Shown piece by piece: positions 3,462-26,661 of a stretch of 41,032 nucleotides of DNA. The first letter of the stretch is position 1, and every line of letters begins with the position of its first letter. The DNA is taken from the UHGV virus genome UHGV-0278189, one strand, 5' to 3'. The DNA is from a virus. The position numbers and the translations under genes are program-made. The notes below the pieces were generated by a model that was not told the DNA's origin, ran no database searches, and was given only the letters and a program-made list of their open reading frames with translations.

Positions 3462-3490
3462 ACCCGCAAAATATTGCGGGCTTTTTTTTA
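3462..3490. terminator. Hairpin at 3' end of tailspike gene (weak terminator)
   Basis: cccgcaaaatattgcggg with A/T runs on both sides; overlaps tailspike stop codon; T-run is on the + strand side so function on the - strand is uncertain. Confidence 0.4.
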
Positions 3491-6400
3491 ACGTTCTTCC
3501 AGAGACTGAATCCGCTCTTTTATCTTATCCATTTCTCTGCGCTGCCATGCTGCCTCGATATAGAATAAGAGATCAGGTCTGACCCCCCATCTAGATCCTG
3601 CTGGCGTTATTTCAACGCGCTCAATGATGTCTTCCATTACCATCACTGGATTATCATCCTCATCAACAATGATGCTCCCGTCATTATCAGTCAGCGGCAT
3701 TTCCCTTTGGCCAGTAATGACGTCATCATATACTGCGGGATAATCGTCATAGCAAAGAAAGGCATAGCGGCATGTTGTGCTTTCTTCTTCCATGAGTCCG
3801 TGAGAAATAAGAACATCACGAAGTTGCTGCGCGATTACACCATGATGTATCCTCGCCCCTTCTTCCCCCTTTATAGCGACAGCGTTCAGCCATTTATAAG
3901 CGATATACCTGACGTCACCCCAGGCATCCAGCAATGCTTCGTCAGGAGAGACCGGCTCTGTCTTTAATGTTCCGTCACTGGTAACCACAGGATTGGAGCC
4001 AAGATAAACTGTCGAGAACCTGTTTCCCGGACCACCAAGAGCATTTACATTATCAAGATAAGGTTTAACATCTCCGTTCTCAAAAAGATGTTCGAGTGCG
4101 TTATATACCGCGCGACGTGGAGTACTGCTTCCGGAACCATGCAACGTTATCATTGCACCATCTGCTGAAGACGTTGTTTCACCGCCGCTAACGATTAATC
4201 TCTGAGCGGTAACATCATCAGACGGTACTTTCTTCGCAATAATGGCGTAATTACCCTCAAGTTTGACTTCCGCGCGAACTTGTCCTGATGTACCTGCATG
4301 GACAGTCAGTGACTGGACGGCAACATCATCTGTGAAATCAACGGGTACAGGAACCGTCCTCACGCCTGACGTCGACATAAAAGTAGGAAGCGTTCTGTTA
4401 GGAGTGGCTCCGTAGACAAAATCCCTTGAAACAAATTCTTCCTGTTTAATTTTCACCCTGAAACAATACAAATCAGCCGGGTGACCATCGTGAACATAAG
4501 GATATTTTCTGTTGTTATCCCCTATGCTCCATGGGTTTAGAAAGTCTTCCCCACCGAAAATGTAGTACAGCCAGTTGTCTTTGATACAAACTGAACCAAC
4601 ACCAACCGCAGAGTTAACTATTCCGCCCTGATAAATCTGATCAGTAACATTAACCCACTCTACATTATCCAGACTCCACTCATTGACGTTAACTCTGGTC
4701 ATAAATGTTCTTGGATAATTTCCTGCATAACGGTTATCAGGTTCTCCTCCTTCCCACTCACCAAATGCGCGCTCACTGCCAAAAATAATCAGCTCATCGC
4801 CAACTTTGGCAAAAGGAAGGTTTGAGTGATGAACATTATTTGGGAAGCGAAGAGAATTCCATGATGTACCTAAATCAGAGCTTCTGTGCAATGAACTACC
4901 GGGTTGAGTACTTAATGTCCCCCTGGTCGTCAGATACAGAATGCCATCATAATATTTTACACATGGCTCAGATGCATTCGCCTCATATTCTACAGGTATG
5001 CGTCTGCGAACAAAGCTACCAGGAGAACCGAAAGCATCAGAGAAATAGAGTATCCCAAGCTCGCGTGGACCAATATCACCATTATGGTAGCCAACAGCAA
5101 AACTGTTATCGCTAATCGTCGCAAAACTGTGAATCTCAGTAACAGGAGTGCTTCCGTCAACAAAAGAAGGAATAGTTCCAAGACTGGTTTTTCTCCATGG
5201 TGACGAGTGAAATGATGTGCCAAAACTCCAGTATCTACCCTCGTTATTCTGATCCACATCCTGGGTATTTTTCGTCGTAACTGTAAAGGTATTTTTATCA
5301 ATAACAGTAGTCACCGTCATATTCCCGGTAACACCTGTAACACCAGAGTTTGAGAAGTTGACAAAATCACCAGCAAATAATCCGTGATCAGTAATGCGAA
5401 TATAAGCGACTTGCTGATTTGCTGCTTTCGTTATACCACCATAAACGCGAAGGCTGCGACTCATTGGGCGATCCCACAACTCTGCAACCTGCAGTTTATT
5501 TCCGCTCACGGTCCGCGTCTCAATTACAGCAAAAAGGCGATTTCTGACAACCCCCATACTCATGCAGTGATAGTTAACTGTGGGATAGTTTTCATGTAAA
5601 TCTGTAAGCCATTCCGGCGTTGTCCAGGTCTTCCCGTCATCTCCTGAGCGAACCCATGCAACATGGAGGTTATTTACACCATGGCGGTCTCCAGCCATAA
5701 AAGGCGCATAGATGACATTGTCATATACAAACGTTTTATCCTGCGTCCAGGCGTTGTACCACGGTGTATCTGTAATTTTAAATAACTCTCCCTGGATAAA
5801 ATCTTCAGAAGCATAAAAAAGAGGTTGGCCCGGTATTCTCTCAAATAAAAAACGAGCATTTTTAAATCGACTGACATCCGGAAGAGTTGATACTTTAAAA
5901 GTAAGCCCTAATCCGTCAATTTTATAACCTGGAGATGAGGCTTCAAGGCACGCGCTTATTGCAGTGGAATCGTCATTTATACCATCACCAACAGCTCCAA
6001 AATCTTTGGGGCTAATAGCATCACGCATTTTATCCTGGAACGTTCGGTACACAGCCCCAGAACCATACTGAATAAACCAACCAAAACCACCAACAACCCC
6101 GGAGATTGCAGCATCGACATAATTACGCATTGAGCGATTATTTACAGCGTCCTGCTCAAATGATGGATCTGCAAGGTTAGAAATTTTGTTTTGCTTTGCA
6201 TCGTAATATTTTGCAAGCAAAGATGGTTTCATCAATGCACGTCTGAACCACCCAAAACATTGCTGGATCAGCATCGTCAGATAGTCAAAGGCATCTTCAT
6301 GCACCTCGGGGAAAAATTTTCCCTGATTACGAAGATCAGTCTCCTGCACCACATCAAGCACACGATCTATCGTAATTCGCCATCCAGCAGCAAGCGGCGA

Positions 6401-6607
6401 CGGAAGAACAACAGAACCGCCACTATAAGTGCCCGCCCCAGTTACCGTATAACCGGTATCCAGTACTAGTTCTGTTACGTTACCGTTAAGGTCAGACACC
6501 TGAACAACCAGGTCGGATTTTTTGAAAATACGGAAGGTATACGGAAATGATGTCGTAACGCCGTTACCAGTGTATTCGTTGTGGTCAACTTCGGTTGAGA
6601 CCGTCAT
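3488..6607 (-). CDS. Tailspike with Asp-box (BNR) beta-propeller-like region and C-terminal intramolecular chaperone-like domain; possible endosialidase
   Basis: 1039 aa; N-terminus MTVSTEVDHNEYTGNGVTTSFPYTFRIFKKSDLVVQV looks like a conserved particle-binding domain; two Asp-boxes (SGDDGKTW, SSDLGTSW); last ~160 aa resemble the self-cleaving chaperone domain of endosialidases and some tail fibers, with a Ser-x4-Lys pattern (TSDGTLK); GGAG RBS. Confidence 0.7.
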   Translation of the reverse strand: MTVSTEVDHNEYTGNGVTTSFPYTFRIFKKSDLVVQVSDLNGNVTELVLDTGYTVTGAGTYSGGSVVLPSPLAAGWRITIDRVLDVVQETDLRNQGKFFPEVHEDAFDYLTMLIQQCFGWFRRALMKPSLLAKYYDAKQNKISNLADPSFEQDAVNNRSMRNYVDAAISGVVGGFGWFIQYGSGAVYRTFQDKMRDAISPKDFGAVGDGINDDSTAISACLEASSPGYKIDGLGLTFKVSTLPDVSRFKNARFLFERIPGQPLFYASEDFIQGELFKITDTPWYNAWTQDKTFVYDNVIYAPFMAGDRHGVNNLHVAWVRSGDDGKTWTTPEWLTDLHENYPTVNYHCMSMGVVRNRLFAVIETRTVSGNKLQVAELWDRPMSRSLRVYGGITKAANQQVAYIRITDHGLFAGDFVNFSNSGVTGVTGNMTVTTVIDKNTFTVTTKNTQDVDQNNEGRYWSFGTSFHSSPWRKTSLGTIPSFVDGSTPVTEIHSFATISDNSFAVGYHNGDIGPRELGILYFSDAFGSPGSFVRRRIPVEYEANASEPCVKYYDGILYLTTRGTLSTQPGSSLHRSSDLGTSWNSLRFPNNVHHSNLPFAKVGDELIIFGSERAFGEWEGGEPDNRYAGNYPRTFMTRVNVNEWSLDNVEWVNVTDQIYQGGIVNSAVGVGSVCIKDNWLYYIFGGEDFLNPWSIGDNNRKYPYVHDGHPADLYCFRVKIKQEEFVSRDFVYGATPNRTLPTFMSTSGVRTVPVPVDFTDDVAVQSLTVHAGTSGQVRAEVKLEGNYAIIAKKVPSDDVTAQRLIVSGGETTSSADGAMITLHGSGSSTPRRAVYNALEHLFENGDVKPYLDNVNALGGPGNRFSTVYLGSNPVVTSDGTLKTEPVSPDEALLDAWGDVRYIAYKWLNAVAIKGEEGARIHHGVIAQQLRDVLISHGLMEEESTTCRYAFLCYDDYPAVYDDVITGQREMPLTDNDGSIIVDEDDNPVMVMEDIIERVEITPAGSRWGVRPDLLFYIEAAWQRREMDKIKERIQSLEER

Positions 6608-7066: not shown

Positions 7067-7082
7067 GGCCGCTCTAGCGGCC
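7067..7082. terminator. Bidirectional terminator between convergent genes
   Basis: GGCCGC-tcta-GCGGCC hairpin with A-rich and T-rich flanks; overlaps stop of 7082-7810 gene. Confidence 0.6.
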
Positions 7083-7810
7083 TATCGTTTCGCTTTGTGC
7101 TCGTCCCAGCACGTTTTGCACCATGCCATTAAGCCGTCCGCATTTTGATTATTAGGGTAAAAGCTAGTTCGTTTTCTGCGGACATTACAAATTGGGCACC
7201 ACTTCATATGGCGTGTATTCTTTGGGCCATCGAGACACCTTGCACACCACTTAGTCAATCCATCTGGATTTTTTGACGATTTCCTGAATTTTTCATATGG
7301 AAGGTTTATTCTGCATCGCAAGCACTGCTTGCTACCACTTGAAACTCTGTTAGCTGATTCTTCTTTTGGCGGCGATACAGAAGGTATTCTTGCTGGCTCT
7401 GATACTGCCTGAGGTGCTTTTTTAGATGACTGAGACGATATGTCATCACCAGGGAATCTTCCATGATATGCCGGACGCGTTGACACTCCGGGTGGAAGCT
7501 CAGCTGTAAACGGCTTTGGCTGAATCAGTTGCCTCTCTTTTGCTAACTCCTGCTGTTTATAATATGTCTGGATTACCGCGCTATCATAAGCAGGAGGTAC
7601 GGAAATATTAGGCGCATTATCTCCCGTTTTTTGAAACTGAGTGGAGGTGTGTTCTATCACCTGTGTACGATTAATCGTTATCTCCCCATCTTCAGTCTTT
7701 ATCGTTTTGTTATGATTAACGACCGTACGATCAGAGATCTTAGTCTTGTTCTGGTTGATAACGTAAATAATCACCGCAACCACACCAACAACTACCCAGA
7801 AAACTTCCAT
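7082..7810 (-). CDS. Single-pass membrane protein with C-terminal tandem CxxC zinc-ribbon motifs (function unknown)
   Basis: 242 aa; N-terminal TM helix (VFWVVVGVVAVIIYVI); C-terminus has four CxxC motifs (CLRC, CARC, CPIC, CKTC) in two ribbon-like pairs; GAGGA RBS; operator-like site 20 bp upstream. Confidence 0.6.
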   Translation of the reverse strand: MEVFWVVVGVVAVIIYVINQNKTKISDRTVVNHNKTIKTEDGEITINRTQVIEHTSTQFQKTGDNAPNISVPPAYDSAVIQTYYKQQELAKERQLIQPKPFTAELPPGVSTRPAYHGRFPGDDISSQSSKKAPQAVSEPARIPSVSPPKEESANRVSSGSKQCLRCRINLPYEKFRKSSKNPDGLTKWCARCLDGPKNTRHMKWCPICNVRRKRTSFYPNNQNADGLMAWCKTCWDEHKAKR

Positions 7811-7939: not shown

Positions 7940-8205
7940 TTTACATCGCACTCCTCTTGTGCCATAGTAATCGGGCACTGGCAAAATCCAGTGCCGGGAT
8001 TGGTCTCCCGGATTACTACAGAGGCACATATGCCGCATAAGCGGTTTTTTTATGTGTAAAGCGCACCTATTCTATGGTGGGCTGTGTGGGGGCACCGAAA
8101 GGTGCGCCGGGTTCCTTTGTAGCCGGTAAGACCAACTCTGCACAGTTCACCACCATCTGATTGGTCTCAGCGGTGGTGATTAACCTAACTACAAAGGTGA
8201 TCGCC

Positions 8206-8898
8206 ATGAATACCAAACCTTCCATCTTTTCCTTTGAGTCATCCTGCCAGATCCGTATGTTCATGATTGACGGAGAACCTTGGTTTGTCACCAAAGATGT
8301 GTGCAATGCTTTGAATATTGATGTTACACAAGCGAGAAAACTTGATAAAAAAGGCTGGAACAAAAAGGGGCTGTATTCAATACAGACCCCTGGTGGAATA
8401 CAAGAACTATCCATCGTTTCAGAATCAGGTCTCTACATCCTTATTCTGCGTTGCAAAGAGGCAATGACTGAGGGAACGAGAGCATTCAGATTTCTTGAAT
8501 GGGTTACAGGTGAGGTTCTTCCTCAGATCCGCCGCACCGGAAGTTACATTAAAAACTCGCTCCCGCAGGAAGAACGCATAAAGATGGTTGCCGACCAGGT
8601 AGCCAACGCCACAGCATCAGCAGTGATGCAGGCAATGAAGATAGAGAACAAAACCTACAGTGCCCCACTGAAGCCCGGCTACCGCAGCCTGATTCATTCT
8701 CCGTCTGGTGTTCTCGGCCTGACGGAGAACTCATTGCTTATGAATCTGCTAAACCAGTTACAGGAAGACGGGCACGACGTATCGGGCGCGGCGGCGGAGC
8801 TGACCACCATGTTCTGCTACATCGTCGGTGTGAGCAAATGCCTGCGTGATATCCAGACCCACGCGGAGTACATCAACGACAAGGCAGGGTTCTTCTGA
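8206..8898 (+). CDS. Antirepressor (Bro-N-like N-terminus, Ant/KilAC-like C-terminus)
   Basis: 230 aa from ATG 8206 with AAAGGTGA RBS (ORF track starts at TTG 8161); N-terminal segment FMIDGEPWFVTKDVCNAL typical of Bro-N/antirepressor proteins. Confidence 0.7.
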   Translation: MNTKPSIFSFESSCQIRMFMIDGEPWFVTKDVCNALNIDVTQARKLDKKGWNKKGLYSIQTPGGIQELSIVSESGLYILILRCKEAMTEGTRAFRFLEWVTGEVLPQIRRTGSYIKNSLPQEERIKMVADQVANATASAVMQAMKIENKTYSAPLKPGYRSLIHSPSGVLGLTENSLLMNLLNQLQEDGHDVSGAAAELTTMFCYIVGVSKCLRDIQTHAEYINDKAGFF

Positions 8899-8963
8899 CG
8901 GGCGGTGGCACAGGGATGTGCCTTTAAAATAATCATTGGCGATGTGATGTAGATTCGCGTAAT

Positions 8964-9038: not shown

Positions 9039-9671
9039 ATGAAAACAAATACAACAAGAAAAGCGATGCCATACATTATCCCAGAAGCAGATTTCGACAG
9101 AAAACTGAACATGTCTGAGAAGAACACTAGTCACACCGAAAGCTACTTAGCGAAAGGTGTGGTTGATTTCGTTCTTCCGGGATTCACAACACCTTATGGT
9201 TATCGCCTTGTAAAATCTTGTAATGGCGATCATTACAGAATGATTACTACCAGCGATACTCCAGAAACGGTGTATGCGGTTAAGTTAATCTTTCGGGAAG
9301 ATATCGTCGAAGCTAAAAGAACATGTACGCAGATCATGGTATGGCGTACGCCTAATGTTATTCATGACCGTGCTGTTCATGGTTTGCCTCAGATTTTTTT
9401 TCAGTTCTTTCTAGAGCAATATGCGATCGTTGTATCTGATGAGCAACAAACAATCGATGGGAGAAGATTCTGGGAAAGAATGATTTCTTGGGCTATAAAC
9501 ACCCCGGGATATAATGTATACGTTTCAGATGGCTCTGAAGAAGATAGACCTCTTAGCTTCATGACATCATGGGATGATTTCTATAGCCAGTGGGCTGATT
9601 TCTGTTGGGGCAGTGATAAAGATGTGCATACCCACAGACTACTGGTTATAAGCAAAGATAAACTGCATTAA
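9039..9671 (+). CDS. Hypothetical cytoplasmic protein (accessory/moron)
   Basis: 210 aa; GGGAGG RBS; followed by strong terminator; no family recognised. Confidence 0.6.
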   Translation: MKTNTTRKAMPYIIPEADFDRKLNMSEKNTSHTESYLAKGVVDFVLPGFTTPYGYRLVKSCNGDHYRMITTSDTPETVYAVKLIFREDIVEAKRTCTQIMVWRTPNVIHDRAVHGLPQIFFQFFLEQYAIVVSDEQQTIDGRRFWERMISWAINTPGYNVYVSDGSEEDRPLSFMTSWDDFYSQWADFCWGSDKDVHTHRLLVISKDKLH

Positions 9672-9676
9672 TAGAA

Positions 9677-9697
9677 GCCCGCAGCGCGGGCTTTTTT
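9677..9697 (+). terminator. Rho-independent terminator
   Basis: GCCCGC-agc-GCGGGC followed by TTTTTT. Confidence 0.8.
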
Positions 9698-9728
9698 GTG
9701 GACGAAACAAAAGTCAGTGCTACACTCA

Positions 9729-9756
9729 TTGACGCCACATTGAGGTGGCTTATAGA
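9729..9756 (+). promoter_or_regulatory. Putative sigma70 promoter for small secreted-peptide gene
   Basis: TTGACG (9729-9734), 16-bp spacer, TATAGA (9751-9756); lies between two terminators. Confidence 0.35.
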
Positions 9757-9769
9757 TGGAAATTTCACA

Positions 9770-9931
9770 ATGAAAAAAGCATTTGCTGCACTGTTCGTTT
9801 TGTTGTCTCTGGTAGCTTCAACTCAGGCCTTTGCCGGTCGTTGTCAGCACGACAGCGATACTGCCGCTGACGGCTCCCGCTGCGGTGGGCGTTCTGCGGA
9901 TTCCCGCCCGGGCGGCGGTGGCATTCGTTAA
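9770..9931 (+). CDS. Small secreted Cys-containing peptide (53-aa precursor)
   Basis: MKKAFAALFVLLSLVASTQAFA signal peptide with AxA site; ~31-aa Gly/Arg/Asp-rich mature part with 2 Cys; flanked by terminators; start chosen at internal ATG of ORF 9698..9931. Confidence 0.45.
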   Translation: MKKAFAALFVLLSLVASTQAFAGRCQHDSDTAADGSRCGGRSADSRPGGGGIR

Positions 9932-9936
9932 AAACA

Positions 9937-9954
9937 AGGCCGCGAAAGCGGCCT
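9937..9954. terminator. Bidirectional terminator
   Basis: aGGCCGC-gaaa-GCGGCCt hairpin; T-run on the - strand side (ttgttttt), serving the 9961-10812 gene. Confidence 0.65.
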
Positions 9955-9960
9955 GTTTGA

Positions 9961-10812
9961 TCACTGTGCAGTTTTCGCTGATCGATTTTCAGCTCTAAAT
10001 TCAAGAACCGTTTCAATATTTCTTTCCTTCAGCATATCAATAACATTTTTATTCATTTGACTATCACTGGTTAATAACTGGTAAACGTTGCTTCTCTCTT
10101 TATCAGAATTTTCTTTAACAGCTGCTTTGCATGCCAAATGCTTATTGAAATTTTCTACATCGCTAGTACAGGAATTTACGGCTGCTGATGAAATATCAGA
10201 CGCTGAAGAAACACCATCATCCAAACGTTTTATAGCATTTTCTATACATGAGTTAAGGGAATAAACGACAACTGAGCGATACCCTTCAGACGCACACCAT
10301 TCTAAATTTCTTGAAGGATCGAGTGGTTTTACTTCGCTGGATTGAATTAACTTGTCAAAAACTGACTTATATTCAATCTGTTTTTTATCTATAGCCCATA
10401 CTTCAGTAGCTGATTTATAATTCCCCGTATGCCTATTAACATCAAATCCATGTTTTATAAGCAAATCTGCCCATGAAAGATTTATTGATTCATTGTTATG
10501 AGGCCATTTTCCTGTCAGAACCGCCCCCATAGACCCCATATATCCGCCATATGATGGTATAGCACCATGGCTCAGTAACTTCTCAGCAACCACAGGGCAA
10601 TTAATTACATAAGAGGCGTAAAGCCCATTCCATAAAGCCCCTCTATAGTAATCGCCACGATTAGGTTCTTTTAAGTCGATAGCCTTTGATAATTGTTCAC
10701 ACGTTTTGCATGCATCAAAGTTATCCTTATTGCATTGCAATGAACTGGCGGCTGTAGGATTTACAGAGACTATTGAAAGCACTATGCCAAAAAACAAATT
10801 TATTTTTTTCAT
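9961..10812 (-). CDS. Secreted Cys-rich protein, AT-rich gene (possible superinfection-exclusion or lysogenic-conversion factor)
   Basis: 283 aa with Sec signal peptide (MKKINLFFGIVLSIVSVNPTAAS); many Cys; start 1 nt after stop of the 1129-aa gene; visibly AT-rich compared with neighbours. Confidence 0.65.
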   Translation of the reverse strand: MKKINLFFGIVLSIVSVNPTAASSLQCNKDNFDACKTCEQLSKAIDLKEPNRGDYYRGALWNGLYASYVINCPVVAEKLLSHGAIPSYGGYMGSMGAVLTGKWPHNNESINLSWADLLIKHGFDVNRHTGNYKSATEVWAIDKKQIEYKSVFDKLIQSSEVKPLDPSRNLEWCASEGYRSVVVYSLNSCIENAIKRLDDGVSSASDISSAAVNSCTSDVENFNKHLACKAAVKENSDKERSNVYQLLTSDSQMNKNVIDMLKERNIETVLEFRAENRSAKTAQ

Positions 10813-10813
10813 C

Positions 10814-13800
10814 CTATTTCATCTGCTCTTCAACTTTATTTAGTAATGGTGATATCGCCCACAGATTCTGAAAAGGTAGCATTTTACGGACAGCGTGGGT
10901 TTGCTGGCTGTCAAATTCTCCGTTAAGTACACCATTTGCAACCGTCGCGGCATCACCGCCAAGATCAAAGGTAGGACCAAGTAAAGCACCAATAGCATTA
11001 CGACTCTGAAACCTTGATACCGGAGGCGCACCAAACATCGCGCCAAGACCAAACCTACCGCCGCTTATGTTCTCAACGGTATTCAGCGGCTCAGAGAGCC
11101 AGCCAAGCATTCCGCCCCGGTCGATCCCCTCTTTCACAAGGTTATTCCAGCTGTAGTCGATATCGCGACCGCTTAACTTCTGTTTCATCATATAGACCAT
11201 TGAGCCAAGCGCAATCGTGCCAAGCGCACCAAGATAGAATGAAGCATCGCCCTGCTGGATACCAGATACCAACACCCTGTTATGCTGTGCGAAGATAAAC
11301 GTTTTGAACTGCGTGATCATCTTCCAGCCTTCTTTACTAAAAAACAGCGGTGTATCACCTACGCCAGGCGTTACAATCACTGAGTCTACATCTTTCAGCA
11401 CTGCAGACTGGAAAATCTCTCTAGCGAAACGGTCATCCCACAGATGACTATGCCCGGTTAACAGCCCGTCCATATCCTCTCCGTGCTTCCCGAATTGCTC
11501 CCCGATTCGGCGCAGAACATCTTCATTGATGCCGACCTGTGCCATCTTCCGCATTTCACTTTTGGCGAGCGTGCCACCAGCAGAAACCTGGCGAGCCGCG
11601 TCAAGTATCCTCGACTGCACTATCATCCCGGACCATGATTTAAGTGCGCTGTTCCACTGATTCATCAGCGTCCAGTTACCGAATTTCTGCGTCATCCAGT
11701 TCAGGCCTCGCTCAGCGGCGCTTCTCCGGCTATAGGGGTCAGTAAGATCCGCTATAGCCTTTGTACGCGTAGACAGGACATAATCAAGCCCAACGGCCAT
11801 TTCTCGCAAATCCCTGGTTGCAATTTTCACTGAGTCCATATTTTTAAGCATGCTTACCATTGGTCCGAGAGATTTTCTCAGGCCATGCTGCATCATCGGT
11901 CGCATCAGATCAGTTGCAGCGGAGACGGTCATTCCACCAAGCAAACGGAGGAAGTTAATATTCCTAGCAACTCGCCCGGCACGAACAAAGAAACTGCGTG
12001 GATCTTGAGGTGCGCCGTAAGTACCAAGCAGTCGGTCACGCATAGCCGTAATATCCCTAATATCAGCCTCCCGTTGCTTCTCAAGAGCTGCACGTCGTTT
12101 AGGTGTTTTAGCCTCTTTTATTAGCCGGGTATATTCCTCACTAACCTGACGGATTTGCTCCCCCATATCTTTACGGCCAAACTGCGCAGTCAGCTCAATT
12201 TCTGGTGCCACCTGCCGGAGATAACTTTCCATGATGTAGTTAACATCTGATTCAAGAAAATCTTCTATACGCTCATCAGGAATAAGCAGCGTTCGGCTTT
12301 TAGTGAAACCAGCCCGACCAACGAGTCTCTCTGGGATAATATCGGCTGGTACAAGCCCGGAAGGTGCGCCTATTATTTTATTCACGATCTCGTCAGCAGC
12401 GTCCTCTGCTTCCTCTCGGGATAGAGGCTCCATCTGCTTCAGTGCTCGCTCGCGGCTTGCATTCAGCCTTGTGGTTGAATTTGCCCGTTTTTGCAGTCGG
12501 CGAAGCTCAGAACGATATTTCCGTGGATTATCCAGCAACTCCATATGGCGCTGATAGACAGGAAGCTCACTCTTTGCCTGCGCTATATCATCAAGGCGTG
12601 TTTTAAGGTCAGAGCTTTCTTTCATCATTCTTGCCTGAAGTTTTTCTGATGAAGTCTCGGCCAACTCTTTTTCTATTCTTGTAAGACGCGCCTGTGTGTC
12701 AGTCTCCTGAGATATAAGCTTATTTCGTTTATCCAGTTCTTCCATGAGTAGAATTTTTTTACCAGACCATTTCTCCGCTTCAGCGATTTCACTAGCGAGA
12801 GCATCAGCGCGCGGTGCCGATTCCTCTGCAGTTTTTAGCAATGAATTTATCCTTTCAATTCGCTGACCTGCTTTGTCAGCACCTTTGGCACTAATCCCTT
12901 GTATCCAGTTGGCAATTCGCCCTCTGAATTCAGTGCGGTCGGAAAGTATCTTATCGAACTTATAAATGCGGGGAAGATAACTTTTCGCCGTCACGACATC
13001 GATATCCTCAGGAAGGATCCCCAGTTCCTGCATACGGGCTTTTGTGGTCTCGAAAATGGGGCGGATTCTGGCGGCTGCTTGTGAAACCTCAGGAATATCA
13101 CTCTGATCACCACGGCGCATAGCCATGCCAACAGCTTCATTGAAATCAATAAAGCTCATCCTCTTCACGCCGCGGGCGCTGACAGATTTGCTGTACTGCT
13201 GGTAAGCATCACGAGTGGCTTCCATCTGCTTATAAAGCATGGCGTCGTATTGCTTAATCTTAGTCTCGACTGCCGTAAACGTAGCCAACCCCTCATCATT
13301 TTTGGCGAAGAAATAGTTATTTTCGGCAAGCTGCTGGTTAATCTGACGGGAGACAAGAGATGGTGATTGCGCCAAGCGGCCAGCAGGAGTGACACTCAAC
13401 GTTTTGTTAGCAAGTCCAAGTCCAGCGAGCTGTTCCTGATCGAGTGTGGTATTGAAAACCTGAGCTGCACCAATGCTTTGAGGAGAATCCATACCTCGCA
13501 AATGATTACCTACTGAGTTAACCACTGCCTCGCGCGCGCTAGGTCCAGCAAGTAGCTGTGCACCAGCACCAAGGATCCCACCAACGAGAGCATCAACAAC
13601 AACGTTCGATACGCTCTCCATCGGTGAGCGAGCTTCCTGAGTGGCCTGCAATGCGGCCTCTGAAGCAACACTGCCAGCAGCATTGGCTAAAGCAAAACGT
13701 CCGGCTGTTTCTGCAATACGACCGCCACGAACGACAGCGCCGAACGGAATAAACATAGAAATCGCATTGAATGGATCTGCTAATCTCATTGCTACAGAAG

Positions 13801-14203
13801 AGACTGTACCAGCAAATCCCAAGCCTGAATTGTATTCCATGTCAGCTCTCTGCTGATCGATTCGATGTTTAATTGCCATTGTTTCTTCAGGCGAACCGGA
13901 GTTGATAAACGAATCTGCAAAATCTTCATAGCCTTTAATATCTGCTGCATCGTTATCAAATGGGTTATATCCTTCAATCCTGTCAAACTGACTGAAAGGA
14001 GCACTGGCAATAAAGCTACCCAGCGTGTTATCTATACGAAATGCTGCTTGTCTAGACCTTTGAACGCGTTGATCACTGGTAAATGGGTTCACAGCAGAAA
14101 GCAAAGAAGGTGTTTCCATATAGAAATTACTGTCATCAGGTGCTGCTATTTGCTGAATATCCTCGCCAAGCAACTCTTTAGGATCCTGTTCATATATCGG
14201 CAT
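10814..14203 (-). CDS. Large internal virion/ejection protein (T7 gp16-like position)
   Basis: 1129 aa; last and largest gene of the core-protein series after tail tube genes; start overlaps upstream gene stop. Confidence 0.5.
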   Translation of the reverse strand: MPIYEQDPKELLGEDIQQIAAPDDSNFYMETPSLLSAVNPFTSDQRVQRSRQAAFRIDNTLGSFIASAPFSQFDRIEGYNPFDNDAADIKGYEDFADSFINSGSPEETMAIKHRIDQQRADMEYNSGLGFAGTVSSVAMRLADPFNAISMFIPFGAVVRGGRIAETAGRFALANAAGSVASEAALQATQEARSPMESVSNVVVDALVGGILGAGAQLLAGPSAREAVVNSVGNHLRGMDSPQSIGAAQVFNTTLDQEQLAGLGLANKTLSVTPAGRLAQSPSLVSRQINQQLAENNYFFAKNDEGLATFTAVETKIKQYDAMLYKQMEATRDAYQQYSKSVSARGVKRMSFIDFNEAVGMAMRRGDQSDIPEVSQAAARIRPIFETTKARMQELGILPEDIDVVTAKSYLPRIYKFDKILSDRTEFRGRIANWIQGISAKGADKAGQRIERINSLLKTAEESAPRADALASEIAEAEKWSGKKILLMEELDKRNKLISQETDTQARLTRIEKELAETSSEKLQARMMKESSDLKTRLDDIAQAKSELPVYQRHMELLDNPRKYRSELRRLQKRANSTTRLNASRERALKQMEPLSREEAEDAADEIVNKIIGAPSGLVPADIIPERLVGRAGFTKSRTLLIPDERIEDFLESDVNYIMESYLRQVAPEIELTAQFGRKDMGEQIRQVSEEYTRLIKEAKTPKRRAALEKQREADIRDITAMRDRLLGTYGAPQDPRSFFVRAGRVARNINFLRLLGGMTVSAATDLMRPMMQHGLRKSLGPMVSMLKNMDSVKIATRDLREMAVGLDYVLSTRTKAIADLTDPYSRRSAAERGLNWMTQKFGNWTLMNQWNSALKSWSGMIVQSRILDAARQVSAGGTLAKSEMRKMAQVGINEDVLRRIGEQFGKHGEDMDGLLTGHSHLWDDRFAREIFQSAVLKDVDSVIVTPGVGDTPLFFSKEGWKMITQFKTFIFAQHNRVLVSGIQQGDASFYLGALGTIALGSMVYMMKQKLSGRDIDYSWNNLVKEGIDRGGMLGWLSEPLNTVENISGGRFGLGAMFGAPPVSRFQSRNAIGALLGPTFDLGGDAATVANGVLNGEFDSQQTHAVRKMLPFQNLWAISPLLNKVEEQMK

Positions 14204-16950
14204 TATTTGCCCCCTGCGTATATATTGCTCGGAAGGTAATTGGCTGAACCATAACCGAATGGTTTGGTCAGATCTGGAGGAGTATATCCATCTTTATTGC
14301 TGAACTGCGGCAGCGGATTGCCTTCTCTCCGCACTCTAGCCTCATCAACACGCTGTTGCTGGAACTGAATGGTTTGCCTGTACATTGGAGATGTCAGCTG
14401 ATCCGGCTTGAAACGAACAGGGAGACCATTTTCTCCAATATAATTTCTCGGTTCTATCGCTCCGTTTGCGTCAGGCTGTAAAACCATAACAGCATAACTC
14501 CTATCCCTTGCCGTAAGGCCATCAGAAACAAGTATTAAGTCCGTATCACTGCGAGGACCGCCAAAGGATTTTGATTTAAGCTCGCGTTTTTCCTGCTCCC
14601 ACTGCCCCTGTATCCAGTTACCAGCACCATTATTTACTCCGTACAATGCCTCAGGTGCATACTTCATAACCTCTGCTTTGCCATTAACCGTAGAAACTCC
14701 CCAGGTGGTTCTGATCATGGCATTGGTCATTTTCTCAGCCTGTTCTGCATCGCCACCTGTCTGTACAAAGTTAGCATCGTAAATTGTCTGGTAATCTCGC
14801 TGATAGGCCGCATTTGATTTTCCTGGATCGGTAATATCCGGAGACCACGAACCAAAGGAAGTCAGACTGCTGGCGTTATTTTGTGCAGCAGTTACCCTCG
14901 CCGCGACATATTTTTTGTCTCGCATGGCAGTGGAAAGCATCTGTTTCATTCGGTCATCCTGTTGGAACACCTGACTGTAAGCCATATCAACAGCCTTATC
15001 CTCCGGCACGCCAGCGCGGGAATAATCGTAAACCTTGCCATAAAATGCCATCGTACTTTTATCAAGTGTTGCCGCTGCCGCCGGATTATTATCGAATAAC
15101 TGACCGTAGAATTTTGCCATCGGGACAACCAGCGCAGGATCTCTTGATGTTGCTCCACTGTTAAGCATTGTTTTAACCTGAGTTGGTATCATGCCGCTTT
15201 TAGTTGTGACGGTGACCAGTGTATTGATGCTCTGCGGATCAGATATGGAAAACGAAGGCGCGATATCCTGCGCGAAATAACGGTCTACCGCTGCCTGATT
15301 GTTTTTGTCGTTCGGGTCCAGCGGGAAGTTATTTTGCATTGAAGACACGAACCTGTTTCTTCCCTGCTGAATCTCCCACTCCCTATCCATCTCTTTAAAT
15401 TTGGCCTGCATTTTCTCCCAGCGTTGCTGGTTAGCAGCAAATCCAGGAGCATTTGGATCCTGTGGACGTAAACGTTCAAGAATGTCTTGTCGTCCTTCTG
15501 GAGTGAGGTCTTTAGCGGCACCAATGACACCTCCATATTGTATCTGCGCCTGCATATCCTTCCACTTCATAGCGCCAATGCGCGGACCATTGGCCCGGAT
15601 AAAATCGTCCTCAGAAGGTAACTTCTCAGGTTTCAATCCTTCATCAAGGGCTGAATATGCATCTTTAACTACGGTGCTAAGCTGGTCCGCATACTGCTGG
15701 CGGTACTGATTTCTCAGCTCATTAGCCTGCCTCAATGCCTGTATTTGCATTTGAGGGCTCATAGCATCAAATGCCGCATTGCCCGTATAACGCTTAGGTG
15801 AATCAAGGTTAGTTAGACCAAGGGCTGCCGAGATACCAGTTTCAAGCTGTTCGGTGCTATAAGGCATACTGCCATTTTCGTGTTTAATAATCCCAGCACA
15901 TAAAGCAGCTAGTGTCTTTGGGTTAGAGATATCAAGCTGATCATTCTCCCCAACACCAAGCTCACCACACAATGCCCTAATATAAGCATCAGTATTATTA
16001 CCATCACTAGCCGGAGCATAGCGATTAACAATCTCGCTAACGGTGTCATAGCCTTGACGCTGGTAAGACAACATATTTTTACCCAACGCGCGGATTCCAT
16101 GCTCAGGGGTAGCAAACGTTGCAAAACGTCCATCGCTACCGATCTGACCTTCCCACGGGTTAGATTTGCTCGCTTCAATATTACCAGGGTTATTATTACG
16201 TAAACCACGAGCATCCAATGAATTACCATGTGATATTGCACGACTCACACCATCAAGATCCCCTGGCTCTCCATTAACCTGAAGAAACTCGTTGTATTTT
16301 TGAGCGATATTTCCTATCCATGCTTGCTGCCCCATTTGTTCCTTGAGCTGAGTTTTCTGCTGAACACGCCACTCATCAGGAAGCCCATGCGCATCAGCGT
16401 ATTGATCAATAGATTCAAATCGCTGCTTGGCTAAATCGACAAATGCTTGGTTATCGCTATATAGCCCCGCAGACTGAGTGACAGCCAATGCATTTCCTGA
16501 CAAATACGTTTGATCTTGGAATTGCTGAAACTGCCCAACTTCATATCGACGTGCCTGATTGTAATAAGACTGCATAGACTGCTGGAGTTGAAAGGATAAT
16601 TTATTCCTTTCCTCACTTTCAGGGATTGAGCCTAATAATGCCTGAGCCCTTTCCTGCATATTTTTCATAACAGCGTCACTCTGACCAAGAGCGTTTTTAC
16701 CCTGTTTAGAAATCAGCCCATTTTCAGGGTTGTTAATCTGGTCATCTGCAAATTGGTTAAATTGCAGTAACGCCTCCTGGGCCATAGCAACATTCGCTTT
16801 CTGCCTGGCTTCACCATATGCCACCGCATACTGATCTGCGACATTCGCCAGCACCTGACCTGCTTGAGGAACATCGAAGGTCTGAAAACCACCGGTTTGC
16901 ACACCACGACTTTGCACCTGGCGTCCGGATGTAGTAGGAACAACAGGCAT
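14203..16950 (-). CDS. Internal virion/ejection protein (T7 gp15-like position)
   Basis: 915 aa; Gln-rich; coupled to flanking genes. Confidence 0.5.
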   Translation of the reverse strand: MPVVPTTSGRQVQSRGVQTGGFQTFDVPQAGQVLANVADQYAVAYGEARQKANVAMAQEALLQFNQFADDQINNPENGLISKQGKNALGQSDAVMKNMQERAQALLGSIPESEERNKLSFQLQQSMQSYYNQARRYEVGQFQQFQDQTYLSGNALAVTQSAGLYSDNQAFVDLAKQRFESIDQYADAHGLPDEWRVQQKTQLKEQMGQQAWIGNIAQKYNEFLQVNGEPGDLDGVSRAISHGNSLDARGLRNNNPGNIEASKSNPWEGQIGSDGRFATFATPEHGIRALGKNMLSYQRQGYDTVSEIVNRYAPASDGNNTDAYIRALCGELGVGENDQLDISNPKTLAALCAGIIKHENGSMPYSTEQLETGISAALGLTNLDSPKRYTGNAAFDAMSPQMQIQALRQANELRNQYRQQYADQLSTVVKDAYSALDEGLKPEKLPSEDDFIRANGPRIGAMKWKDMQAQIQYGGVIGAAKDLTPEGRQDILERLRPQDPNAPGFAANQQRWEKMQAKFKEMDREWEIQQGRNRFVSSMQNNFPLDPNDKNNQAAVDRYFAQDIAPSFSISDPQSINTLVTVTTKSGMIPTQVKTMLNSGATSRDPALVVPMAKFYGQLFDNNPAAAATLDKSTMAFYGKVYDYSRAGVPEDKAVDMAYSQVFQQDDRMKQMLSTAMRDKKYVAARVTAAQNNASSLTSFGSWSPDITDPGKSNAAYQRDYQTIYDANFVQTGGDAEQAEKMTNAMIRTTWGVSTVNGKAEVMKYAPEALYGVNNGAGNWIQGQWEQEKRELKSKSFGGPRSDTDLILVSDGLTARDRSYAVMVLQPDANGAIEPRNYIGENGLPVRFKPDQLTSPMYRQTIQFQQQRVDEARVRREGNPLPQFSNKDGYTPPDLTKPFGYGSANYLPSNIYAGGK

Positions 16951-26584: not shown

Positions 26585-26661
26585 GTGGCATTAGCTCAGT
26601 TGGACAGAGCAACCGCCTTCTAAGCGGTTGGTCGCAGGTTCGAATCCTGCATGCCACGCCA
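26585..26661 (+). tRNA. tRNA-Arg (anticodon UCU), phage-encoded
   Basis: 77 nt; acceptor stem GTGGCAT/ATGCCAC, D-arm GCTC..GAGC, anticodon loop CTTCTAA, T-arm GCAGG-TTCGAAT-CCTGC, discriminator G and encoded CCA. Confidence 0.85.

Follow-up and report, generated by a model that had tools for sequence, protein, structure and literature searches.

We analyzed the late region of a prophage in UHGV virus genome UHGV-0278189 (41,032 nt, below called the window) and describe a gene for an exported protein of 283 amino acids (aa) that lies directly behind the genes of the internal virion proteins. The left end of the window is Escherichia coli chromosome (yfgH, yfgI), and the remainder is a prophage whose close relatives are the Escherichia phages EC.W1-9, TL-2011b and phiV10. 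The initial annotation had drawn a parallel with P22-like phages, but the prophage belongs to the epsilon15/phiV10-like (Uetakevirus) type. On the minus strand, its virion genes run in the order of a T7 gp14-family core protein, a 915-aa internal virion protein (14203-16950), a 1129-aa protein (10814-14203) and the 283-aa open reading frame (ORF; 9961-10812). The 1129-aa protein is an internal virion (ejection) protein of the T7 gp16/epsilon15 gp17 (IVP-D) type, as indicated by PHROG 342 ("internal virion protein"), synteny and published work (PMC4819975), and its earlier description as the largest ejection protein is a fair label. The ATG of the 283-aa ORF is located one base beyond the TAG of the IVP-D gene (ATG AAA TAG g ATG AAA AAA), in agreement with the spacing first reported. 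Directly past the TGA of the 283-aa gene, a terminator scan found a GC-rich hairpin with a U-run (9954-9937) whose predicted folding is favorable on either strand (-16.5 and -17.5 kcal/mol; z-scores -3.5 and -4.4), forming a bidirectional intrinsic terminator (9937-9954); the equivalent stretch in phiV10 is annotated as a (late) terminator. Because this hairpin directly follows its stop codon, the 283-aa gene is the last cistron of the late virion/ejection operon, translationally coupled to the ejection genes and sharing their terminator. A crude consensus scan found no promoter-like site upstream of the gene on its strand.

The GC profile supports the original view of the region as a set of AT-rich accessory genes. 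GC content is 0.367 for the 283-aa gene (0.282 at third codon positions) and 0.406 for the neighboring 210-aa gene, and the mean of the prophage is 0.482, with a standard deviation of 0.037 in windows of 852 nt. Only 0.1% of these windows are as low as the 283-aa gene, which is the most AT-rich stretch of the prophage. The features of a moron that it displays are composition and presence/absence only, its transcription being borrowed from the late operon.

The 283-aa protein had been described as secreted and Cys-rich, and its sequence bears this out with a Sec-type signal peptide and eight cysteines. An initial MKK precedes a hydrophobic segment, cleavage sites of the A-x-A type occur in every homologue, and the sole 19-residue window with a Kyte-Doolittle hydropathy above 1.6 starts at residue 4. 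The signal peptide covers approximately residues 1-23 (10744-10812, minus strand), and cleavage by signal peptidase I is predicted just before Cys27; this assignment was made from sequence features (hydropathy, A-x-A sites and a lipobox check). The mature protein reaches a maximum 19-residue hydropathy of 0.99 and has no membrane helices. We rejected lipoprotein status, as no homologue carries a lipobox before Cys27. None of the eight cysteines varies among 14 homologues with identities as low as 39%, as would suit an oxidising compartment, and we infer that the product is a soluble, phage-encoded periplasmic protein. Because of the signal peptide, it is unlikely to be a virion component.

Homologues form a small family found in E. 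coli, Klebsiella (~85% identity), Serratia-like hosts (~55-60%), and Morganella and Providencia (~40%). Of 5426 complete E. coli genomes, 106 (~2%) carry the gene, always on the chromosome and with an intact frame, and it also occurs in the isolated phage EC.W1-9. In the fetched carrier loci from E. coli, Klebsiella, Serratia, Morganella and Providencia-like sources, the homologue starts 1-36 nt behind a co-directional gene of ~1130 aa, the exception being one locus (L043) in which our script found no long upstream ORF. The position behind the IVP-D gene is thus kept down to 39% identity, and such synteny at 40% identity argues that the position matters. Searches of Pfam, NCBIfam and PADLOC returned no match for the 283-aa protein, the 210-aa protein or their homologues, and PHROGs gave only families of "unknown function" (PHROG 6118 for the 283-aa protein). 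A scan of the genome collection with the full-length 283-aa family returned nothing, the representative genomes being without the family.

Profile searches resolved the composition of the protein. It is a fusion of two domains, each of which also exists as a free-standing signal-peptide protein; all of the free-standing relatives examined, of either domain, carry signal peptides. The N-domain comprises approximately residues 24-160 (10333-10743, minus strand), with the motifs C-x7-C-x2-C, GDYYRGALWNGLY, NC, LL..GA.P..GG, KWPHNN and N..W. An exhaustive profile search recovered free-standing relatives of 160-175 aa that match approximately residues 6-155 with E-values from 1e-41 to 1e-24, and a further word-indexed search with a mixed alignment returned mostly the same proteins again. 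Aligned across this family, behind the signal peptide, are C-x7-C-x2-C, (E/D)Y(Y/F)RGA.WNGL(Y/F), NC, GA.P..GG and WPH. Neither domain has a Pfam family.

The free-standing N-domain genes, drawn from genomes (Bacteriovoracia, Pseudobdellovibrionaceae, Oligoflexia and other Proteobacteria) and metagenomes, are repeatedly found beside a cell wall hydrolase. A PHA02564-type hydrolase domain, recognizable by its RNNNPGNI motif, is located within ~300 nt of the N-domain gene in 9 of 36 loci, and in a third (7/21) of those with at least 700 nt of flank on both sides. The pairs occur in three gene arrangements, some with overlapping start and stop codons, and eight of the nine hydrolase-paired N-proteins are distinct, mostly with 35-59% mutual identity (86% in one pair). 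The paired hydrolase matches the catalytic domain of the phage Enc34 endolysin (PDB 7q47, E 2e-24), as well as the N-terminus of the 1295-aa "Gp29" (PDB 9vvp). The Enc34 domain (family PHA02564) has been shown experimentally to be muralytic (PMC8943055). The paired hydrolases lack a signal peptide and their N-domain partners have one, and a signal-less hydrolase beside an exported partner is the pattern of effector-immunity pairs. An Enc34-like effector of a type VI secretion system (T6SS) with an adjacently encoded, 18.5-kDa signal-peptide immunity protein has been described (PMC13340143). Pfam-type searches, which did not cover the published immunity protein Tai5a (WP_137189658.1) of Stenotrophomonas rhizophila, showed no homology of the 283-aa family or its domains to any named immunity family. 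Looking up the clusters of the free-standing N-domain proteins returned only unnamed metagenome entries and hence no link to Tai5a. Separately, two N-domain genes without a PHA02564 neighbor are located near other wall-active proteins (L133 2026-3885 and L143 2252-2905), namely an exported 619-aa M15 peptidase in one case and, in the other, a 217-aa protein whose resemblance to a GH24-type lysozyme motif was noted by eye only.

A hydrolase domain of the same type is encoded in the operon of the 283-aa gene itself. Residues ~247-375 of the 915-aa internal virion protein (15826-16212, minus strand) form an Enc34/PHA02564-type muralytic domain (RGLRNNNPGNI ... HENGS), which in phmmer searches matches Gp29 (PDB 9vvp_L, E 5.5e-35) and the Enc34 endolysin (7q47, E 1.2e-16). 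The domain is encoded one gene, or 3.4 kb, upstream of the 283-aa gene. Thus, an exported protein whose relatives pair with PHA02564 hydrolases shares an operon with just such a hydrolase, delivered into the periplasm by the phage. Every examined carrier of a 283-aa homologue has a PHA02564-type domain one gene upstream of its IVP-D gene. The non-carrier TL-2011b has a soluble lytic transglycosylase (SLT)-type domain instead, together with an IVP-D allele that is 31-42% identical; phiV10 does not carry the 283-aa gene yet has the same hydrolase domain, at 61% identity. In Morganella prophages with a 270-aa homologue, we also noted that a 159-aa gene located after two holin genes, and thus a presumed endolysin, is of the Enc34/PHA02564 type (L004 12244-12723 and L042 10244-10723); these enzymes are 39% identical to the virion-protein domain of the window. 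The endolysin of the prophage in the window is of the GH19 type.

Taken together, the neighborhood of the N-domain family and the domain in the 915-aa protein constitute the support for an inhibitory function. We propose, with a probability of roughly 0.4, that the 283-aa protein is a Spackle-like periplasmic inhibitor of an injected wall hydrolase that blocks superinfecting phages. The narrower claim that the N-domain binds PHA02564-type hydrolases has, in our estimate, somewhat better odds. In the proposed mechanism, the 283-aa protein would be made late in infection along with the virion and ejection proteins and exported by the Sec pathway, and up to four disulfides would stabilise it. The N-domain would then bind the PHA02564 domain of the 915-aa proteins that incoming phages of the same kind eject into the periplasm. 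Local wall digestion would thereby be prevented, so that genome delivery by superinfecting like phages would be blocked or delayed, and wall damage at high multiplicity would be limited. The C-domain, a phage-borne exported module, may provide a further contact against entry or serve in oligomerisation.

To our knowledge, no phage-encoded periplasmic inhibitor of the wall-cutting enzyme of an incoming phage is well characterised except T4 Spackle, and we found no described inhibitor in the literature for the internal-virion-protein hydrolases of short-tailed phages. Spackle inhibits the gp5 lysozyme in the periplasm (PMC7677548). The 283-aa protein would resemble it as a phage-encoded, soluble periplasmic protein with a signal peptide that is expressed in the lytic cycle and is proposed to act on the wall-digesting domain of the incoming phage. 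However, Spackle targets a T4 lysozyme-type enzyme in the tail spike of a myovirus, whereas the putative target here is a PHA02564/Enc34-type domain in an internal virion protein of a podovirus. Spackle is also the product of an early gene and has a demonstrated activity, whereas the 283-aa gene is late and the activity of its product is inferred. We found no sequence or fold match between Spackle and the 283-aa protein.

A second group of precedents comprises the Tai/Tsi immunity proteins of T6SSs, the X-Tfi immunity proteins of the Xanthomonadales-like type IV secretion system (X-T4SS), and Bd3460, an ankyrin protein that protects Bdellovibrio against its own wall DD-endopeptidases (PMC4686830). 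All of these are small, exported, and encoded beside a wall hydrolase made in the cytoplasm (PMC4686830, PMC10933484, PMC13340143). The free-standing N-domain relatives, several of which are found in Bdellovibrionota genomes, share this immunity-type gene arrangement. Unlike these proteins, the N-domain of the 283-aa protein is fused to a second domain, and its gene belongs to a phage virion operon in which 3.4 kb separate it from the hydrolase domain.

Several observations weigh against a hydrolase inhibitor that excludes superinfecting phages. Close relatives with the same hydrolase are often without the 283-aa gene, among them phiV10 and 52 of the 79 loci surveyed below. The linkage between hydrolase type and gene is confounded by common descent of the module. 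About three-quarters of the free-standing N-domain loci are without an adjacent hydrolase; some of these are short contigs and others are true orphans. With no detectable promoter of its own and a place in the late operon, expression of the gene in the lysogen, where exclusion is usually most useful, is not supported. Finally, a broad inhibitor would hinder lysis in the Morganella phages, because their own endolysin is of the PHA02564 type.

The same neighborhood evidence for a hydrolase partner would fit a role in cis, in which an inhibitor made stoichiometrically with the internal virion proteins guards the producing cell against leakage of the phage's own hydrolase. Translational coupling and a terminator held in common with the ejection genes agree with this idea, and in another hydrolase/immunity pair, periplasmic immunity proteins are documented to counter mainly the leakage of the cell's own cytoplasmic wall hydrolase (PMC10933484). 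We consider it unlikely, however, as the internal virion proteins carry no export signal and the absence of the gene from most same-hydrolase relatives indicates that leakage is no general problem. Slightly less likely still is an orphan immunity function, in which the prophage would protect its lysogen from Enc34/PHA02564-type effectors delivered by competing bacteria through a T6SS or similar system. Such a function would be in line with the resemblance of the free-standing N-domain/hydrolase pairs to effector-immunity cassettes in the chromosomes of predatory and other bacteria, it has a counterpart in the Enc34-like T6SS effector and its immunity protein cited above, and the AT-rich 283-aa gene looks horizontally acquired; but no promoter for lysogen expression was found, and the strictly conserved place in the ejection-protein operon points to a phage-directed role.

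The fold of the N-domain is weakly ankyrin-like, and the 283-aa protein shows weak similarities to DARPins and tankyrase; one UniRef entry is named "Ankyrin repeat domain-containing protein". An ankyrin-type factor aimed at a eukaryotic host would be in line with these hints. Nevertheless, none of the 14 family members has a Pfam ankyrin match at E-values up to 1, and a Sec signal alone is insufficient for a protein to leave the cell. Nor does the gene look like a functionless hitch-hiker in the late operon, as homologues with as little as 39% identity retain all eight cysteines and many motif residues and its frame is intact in 106 complete E. coli genomes, indicating selection. Both possibilities, factor and hitch-hiker, are highly improbable.

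The C-domain comprises approximately residues 165-283 (9964-10320, minus strand) and is predicted to fold as a bundle of helices, with AlphaFold2 (AF2) pLDDT values of 81-95; its two cysteines, spaced by 25 residues, lie on either side of LDDG(V/I)S.ASDI. Its free-standing relatives, which match approximately residues 160-270, are 110-200 aa in length and have LDDG(I/V)SPASDIA between cysteines that are likewise 25 residues apart. Their genes are found in prophage lysogeny modules, where an S24-type repressor (CI-like, LexA family) is their neighbor or lies a short way upstream; one, in a phage contig, stands alone on the reverse strand. The vicinity of the repressors counts in favor of the proposed exclusion function. 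No adjacent hydrolase was found in the fetched loci of the C-domain genes.

To place the 283-aa gene among its alternatives, we surveyed the slot behind the IVP-D gene in 79 viral contigs that share at least 79% identity with the window over the C-terminus of IVP-D. The slot is occupied by the 283-aa gene in 27 loci, by a gene for a 204-aa non-exported protein in 14, by no same-strand gene in another 14, and by genes for other exported proteins, lipoproteins or small membrane proteins in the remaining 24. Within this last class, one protein matches the profile of the free-standing C-domain, another matches only a profile that also held C-terminal halves of the 283-aa family, and one group shares the Cys-25-Cys pattern (hhalign probability 62%, E 7e-5). 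These matches make it probable that C-domain relatives occupy the same post-ejection-gene slot in related phages. Judged crudely by hydrophobicity and lipobox, some 50 of the 65 occupants on the same strand have a signal peptide, a lipobox or a membrane helix; the slot of phiV10 holds a 46-aa two-helix membrane protein. The slot is thus a hypervariable hot spot for envelope-directed cargo, in keeping with exclusion functions such as the one proposed here, although the enrichment was not set against a background rate. The second commonest occupant, the 204-aa protein (MGILGKFGNF...; L069 and 13 similar loci), has neither an export signal nor a Pfam match. At one locus (L032 6850-7100; IMG/VR 2541047826_000014), a 282-aa homologue is followed by a 3' remnant of a TL-2011b-type IVP-D gene, ending in FWIAPLINQVDPVMK and a stop codon, and then by a small membrane-protein gene. 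The remnant looks like a recombination scar, and because this locus keeps a piece of the other IVP-D allele, cassettes appear to be swapped and stacked by recombination at the 3' end of the IVP-D gene.

The initial annotation had compared the location of the 283-aa gene with that of P22 sieA. In P22, the genes are ordered 16, sieA, mnt-arc-ant and 9, with sieA convergent with gene 16 and expressed from its own promoter. In the window, the last ejection gene is followed by accessory genes, then by an immI-like antirepressor module and then by the tailspike. The likeness of place therefore stands insofar as both genes are located between the last ejection gene and an antirepressor/tailspike region, but it does not extend further: sieA lies on the opposite strand from the ejection genes, has its own promoter, is expressed in the lysogen and encodes an inner-membrane protein, and none of this was found for the 283-aa gene. 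SieA is a multi-helix protein with the motif FxRYPxEAxxFNK, and escape mutations from it map to the ejection proteins gp16 and gp20 (PMC10883804). The best tblastn match of SieA in the window has an E-value of 5.7 and is located elsewhere, BLASTP gave 1.2, and none of the six frames of the window contains the motif. P22 SieA has 43 hydropathy windows above 1.6, as opposed to the signal peptide only in the 283-aa protein. We therefore rejected membership in the SieA family on the grounds of similarity, motif, the lack of mature membrane helices and an orientation co-directional with the ejection genes.

An envelope-acting exclusion or conversion function with a target other than a hydrolase has to be weighed at this point. 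The 283-aa protein might act on the assembly of the ejectosome channel, a SieA-like function, or mask a receptor or the envelope. The many unrelated exported, lipoprotein, membrane and C-domain-only proteins in the slot, including the two-helix protein of phiV10, would suit such a function, as would the SieA escape mutations in ejection proteins and the location of C-domain genes next to prophage repressors. It would, however, leave the repeated pairing of N-domain and PHA02564 hydrolase unexplained, and the 283-aa protein has no similarity to SieA; we regard this explanation as improbable. Cor of phages phi80 and N15 is an exported accessory protein that is encoded near virion/receptor-binding genes and gives exclusion. 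Llp of T5 is an exclusion lipoprotein that blocks the receptor (PMC9586334). Both resemble the 283-aa protein as exported accessory proteins encoded near virion genes, and lipoproteins occupy the same slot in related phages, but the 283-aa protein is without a lipobox and its relatives point to a hydrolase rather than to an outer-membrane receptor.

The initial interpretation of the gene as a periplasmic blocker of phage entry coupled to the injection proteins is right in spirit but wrong in analogy. Gene neighborhoods support it indirectly, the comparison with sieA fails, and we found no evidence for the alternative suggestion of cell-surface modification. The likely target would also be narrower than DNA entry as such, namely the Enc34/PHA02564-type domain of the 915-aa protein.

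On a broader scale, epsilon15-like podoviruses may carry exchangeable envelope-targeted exclusion cassettes at a fixed slot, the 283-aa protein being the first inhibitor of Enc34/PHA02564 enzymes and an independently arisen Spackle-like defence against a short-tailed ejectosome, and the N-domain family defining a new class of immunity proteins against antibacterial PHA02564-type effectors of predatory bacteria and others. We hold this wider picture, taken as a whole, to be doubtful. If the prediction of a hydrolase inhibitor holds, it would offer a way into the use of ejectosome hydrolases and the defenses against them, the first inhibitor of an enzyme class that is itself considered as an antibacterial, and a named function for two orphan exported families in prophages and effector-like cassettes. 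The slot behind the IVP-D gene would be a place to seek further exclusion genes. Given its presence in ~2% of complete E. coli genomes and in prophages of Klebsiella, Serratia and Morganella, the gene may affect the plating of therapeutic phages of this type.

The neighboring 210-aa protein (9039-9671, plus strand; PHROG 1349) had been described as cytoplasmic, and it contains no hydrophobic segment. It is widespread in Enterobacterales prophages and shows only a weak match to a GNAT-like fold. The gene is preceded by a promoter-like site (8905-8933) that is a weak consensus match, the scan yielding no more sites than in shuffled sequence, and a strong hairpin with a U-run at 9674-9697 forms its own terminator. 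Close relatives have other genes in its place, one of them encoding a YafO-family toxin, and the cassette recurs in P1-like elements and, next to Ant/Arc modules, in siphovirus prophages of Serratia. With its promoter-like site, terminator, low GC content and presence/absence in relatives, the 210-aa gene appears to be a self-contained moron.

Between the 210-aa gene and the late terminator, an ORF starting from an internal ATG (9770-9931, plus strand), convergent with the 283-aa gene, encodes a small exported peptide of 53 aa, consisting of a signal peptide and ~30 residues containing Gly, Arg and Cys. Its GC content is 0.58, in contrast to its AT-rich neighbors, and it is conserved and annotated in TL-2011b, EC.W1-9 and RefSeq (PHROG 3117/14503, "membrane associated protein"). 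Upstream of the 210-aa gene is the immI-like module (7975-8898, plus strand), in which isrK (7975-8051) and a C4 antisense RNA (8070-8157), both above the Rfam gathering score, are directly followed by a Bro-N antirepressor-like gene (8161-8898) identified by a Bro-N Pfam match and Ant PHROGs. The combination of isrK, C4 and Bro-N is a P1/P7 immI-like control module inside an epsilon15-like prophage. Between this module and the tailspike, a 242-aa protein (7082-7810, minus strand) carries a membrane anchor at its N-terminus, and the Cys-rich repeats at its C-terminus match zinc-finger PHROGs of the endonuclease VII/HNH/Lar-like kind. A tRNA gene is located within the prophage at 26585-26658 (plus strand; Rfam 73 bits). 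The tailspike (3488-6607, minus strand) is a complete endosialidase with an End_beta_propel domain (E 4e-233) and an S74 chaperone domain, and the prophage should therefore be specific for K1-capsulated E. coli.

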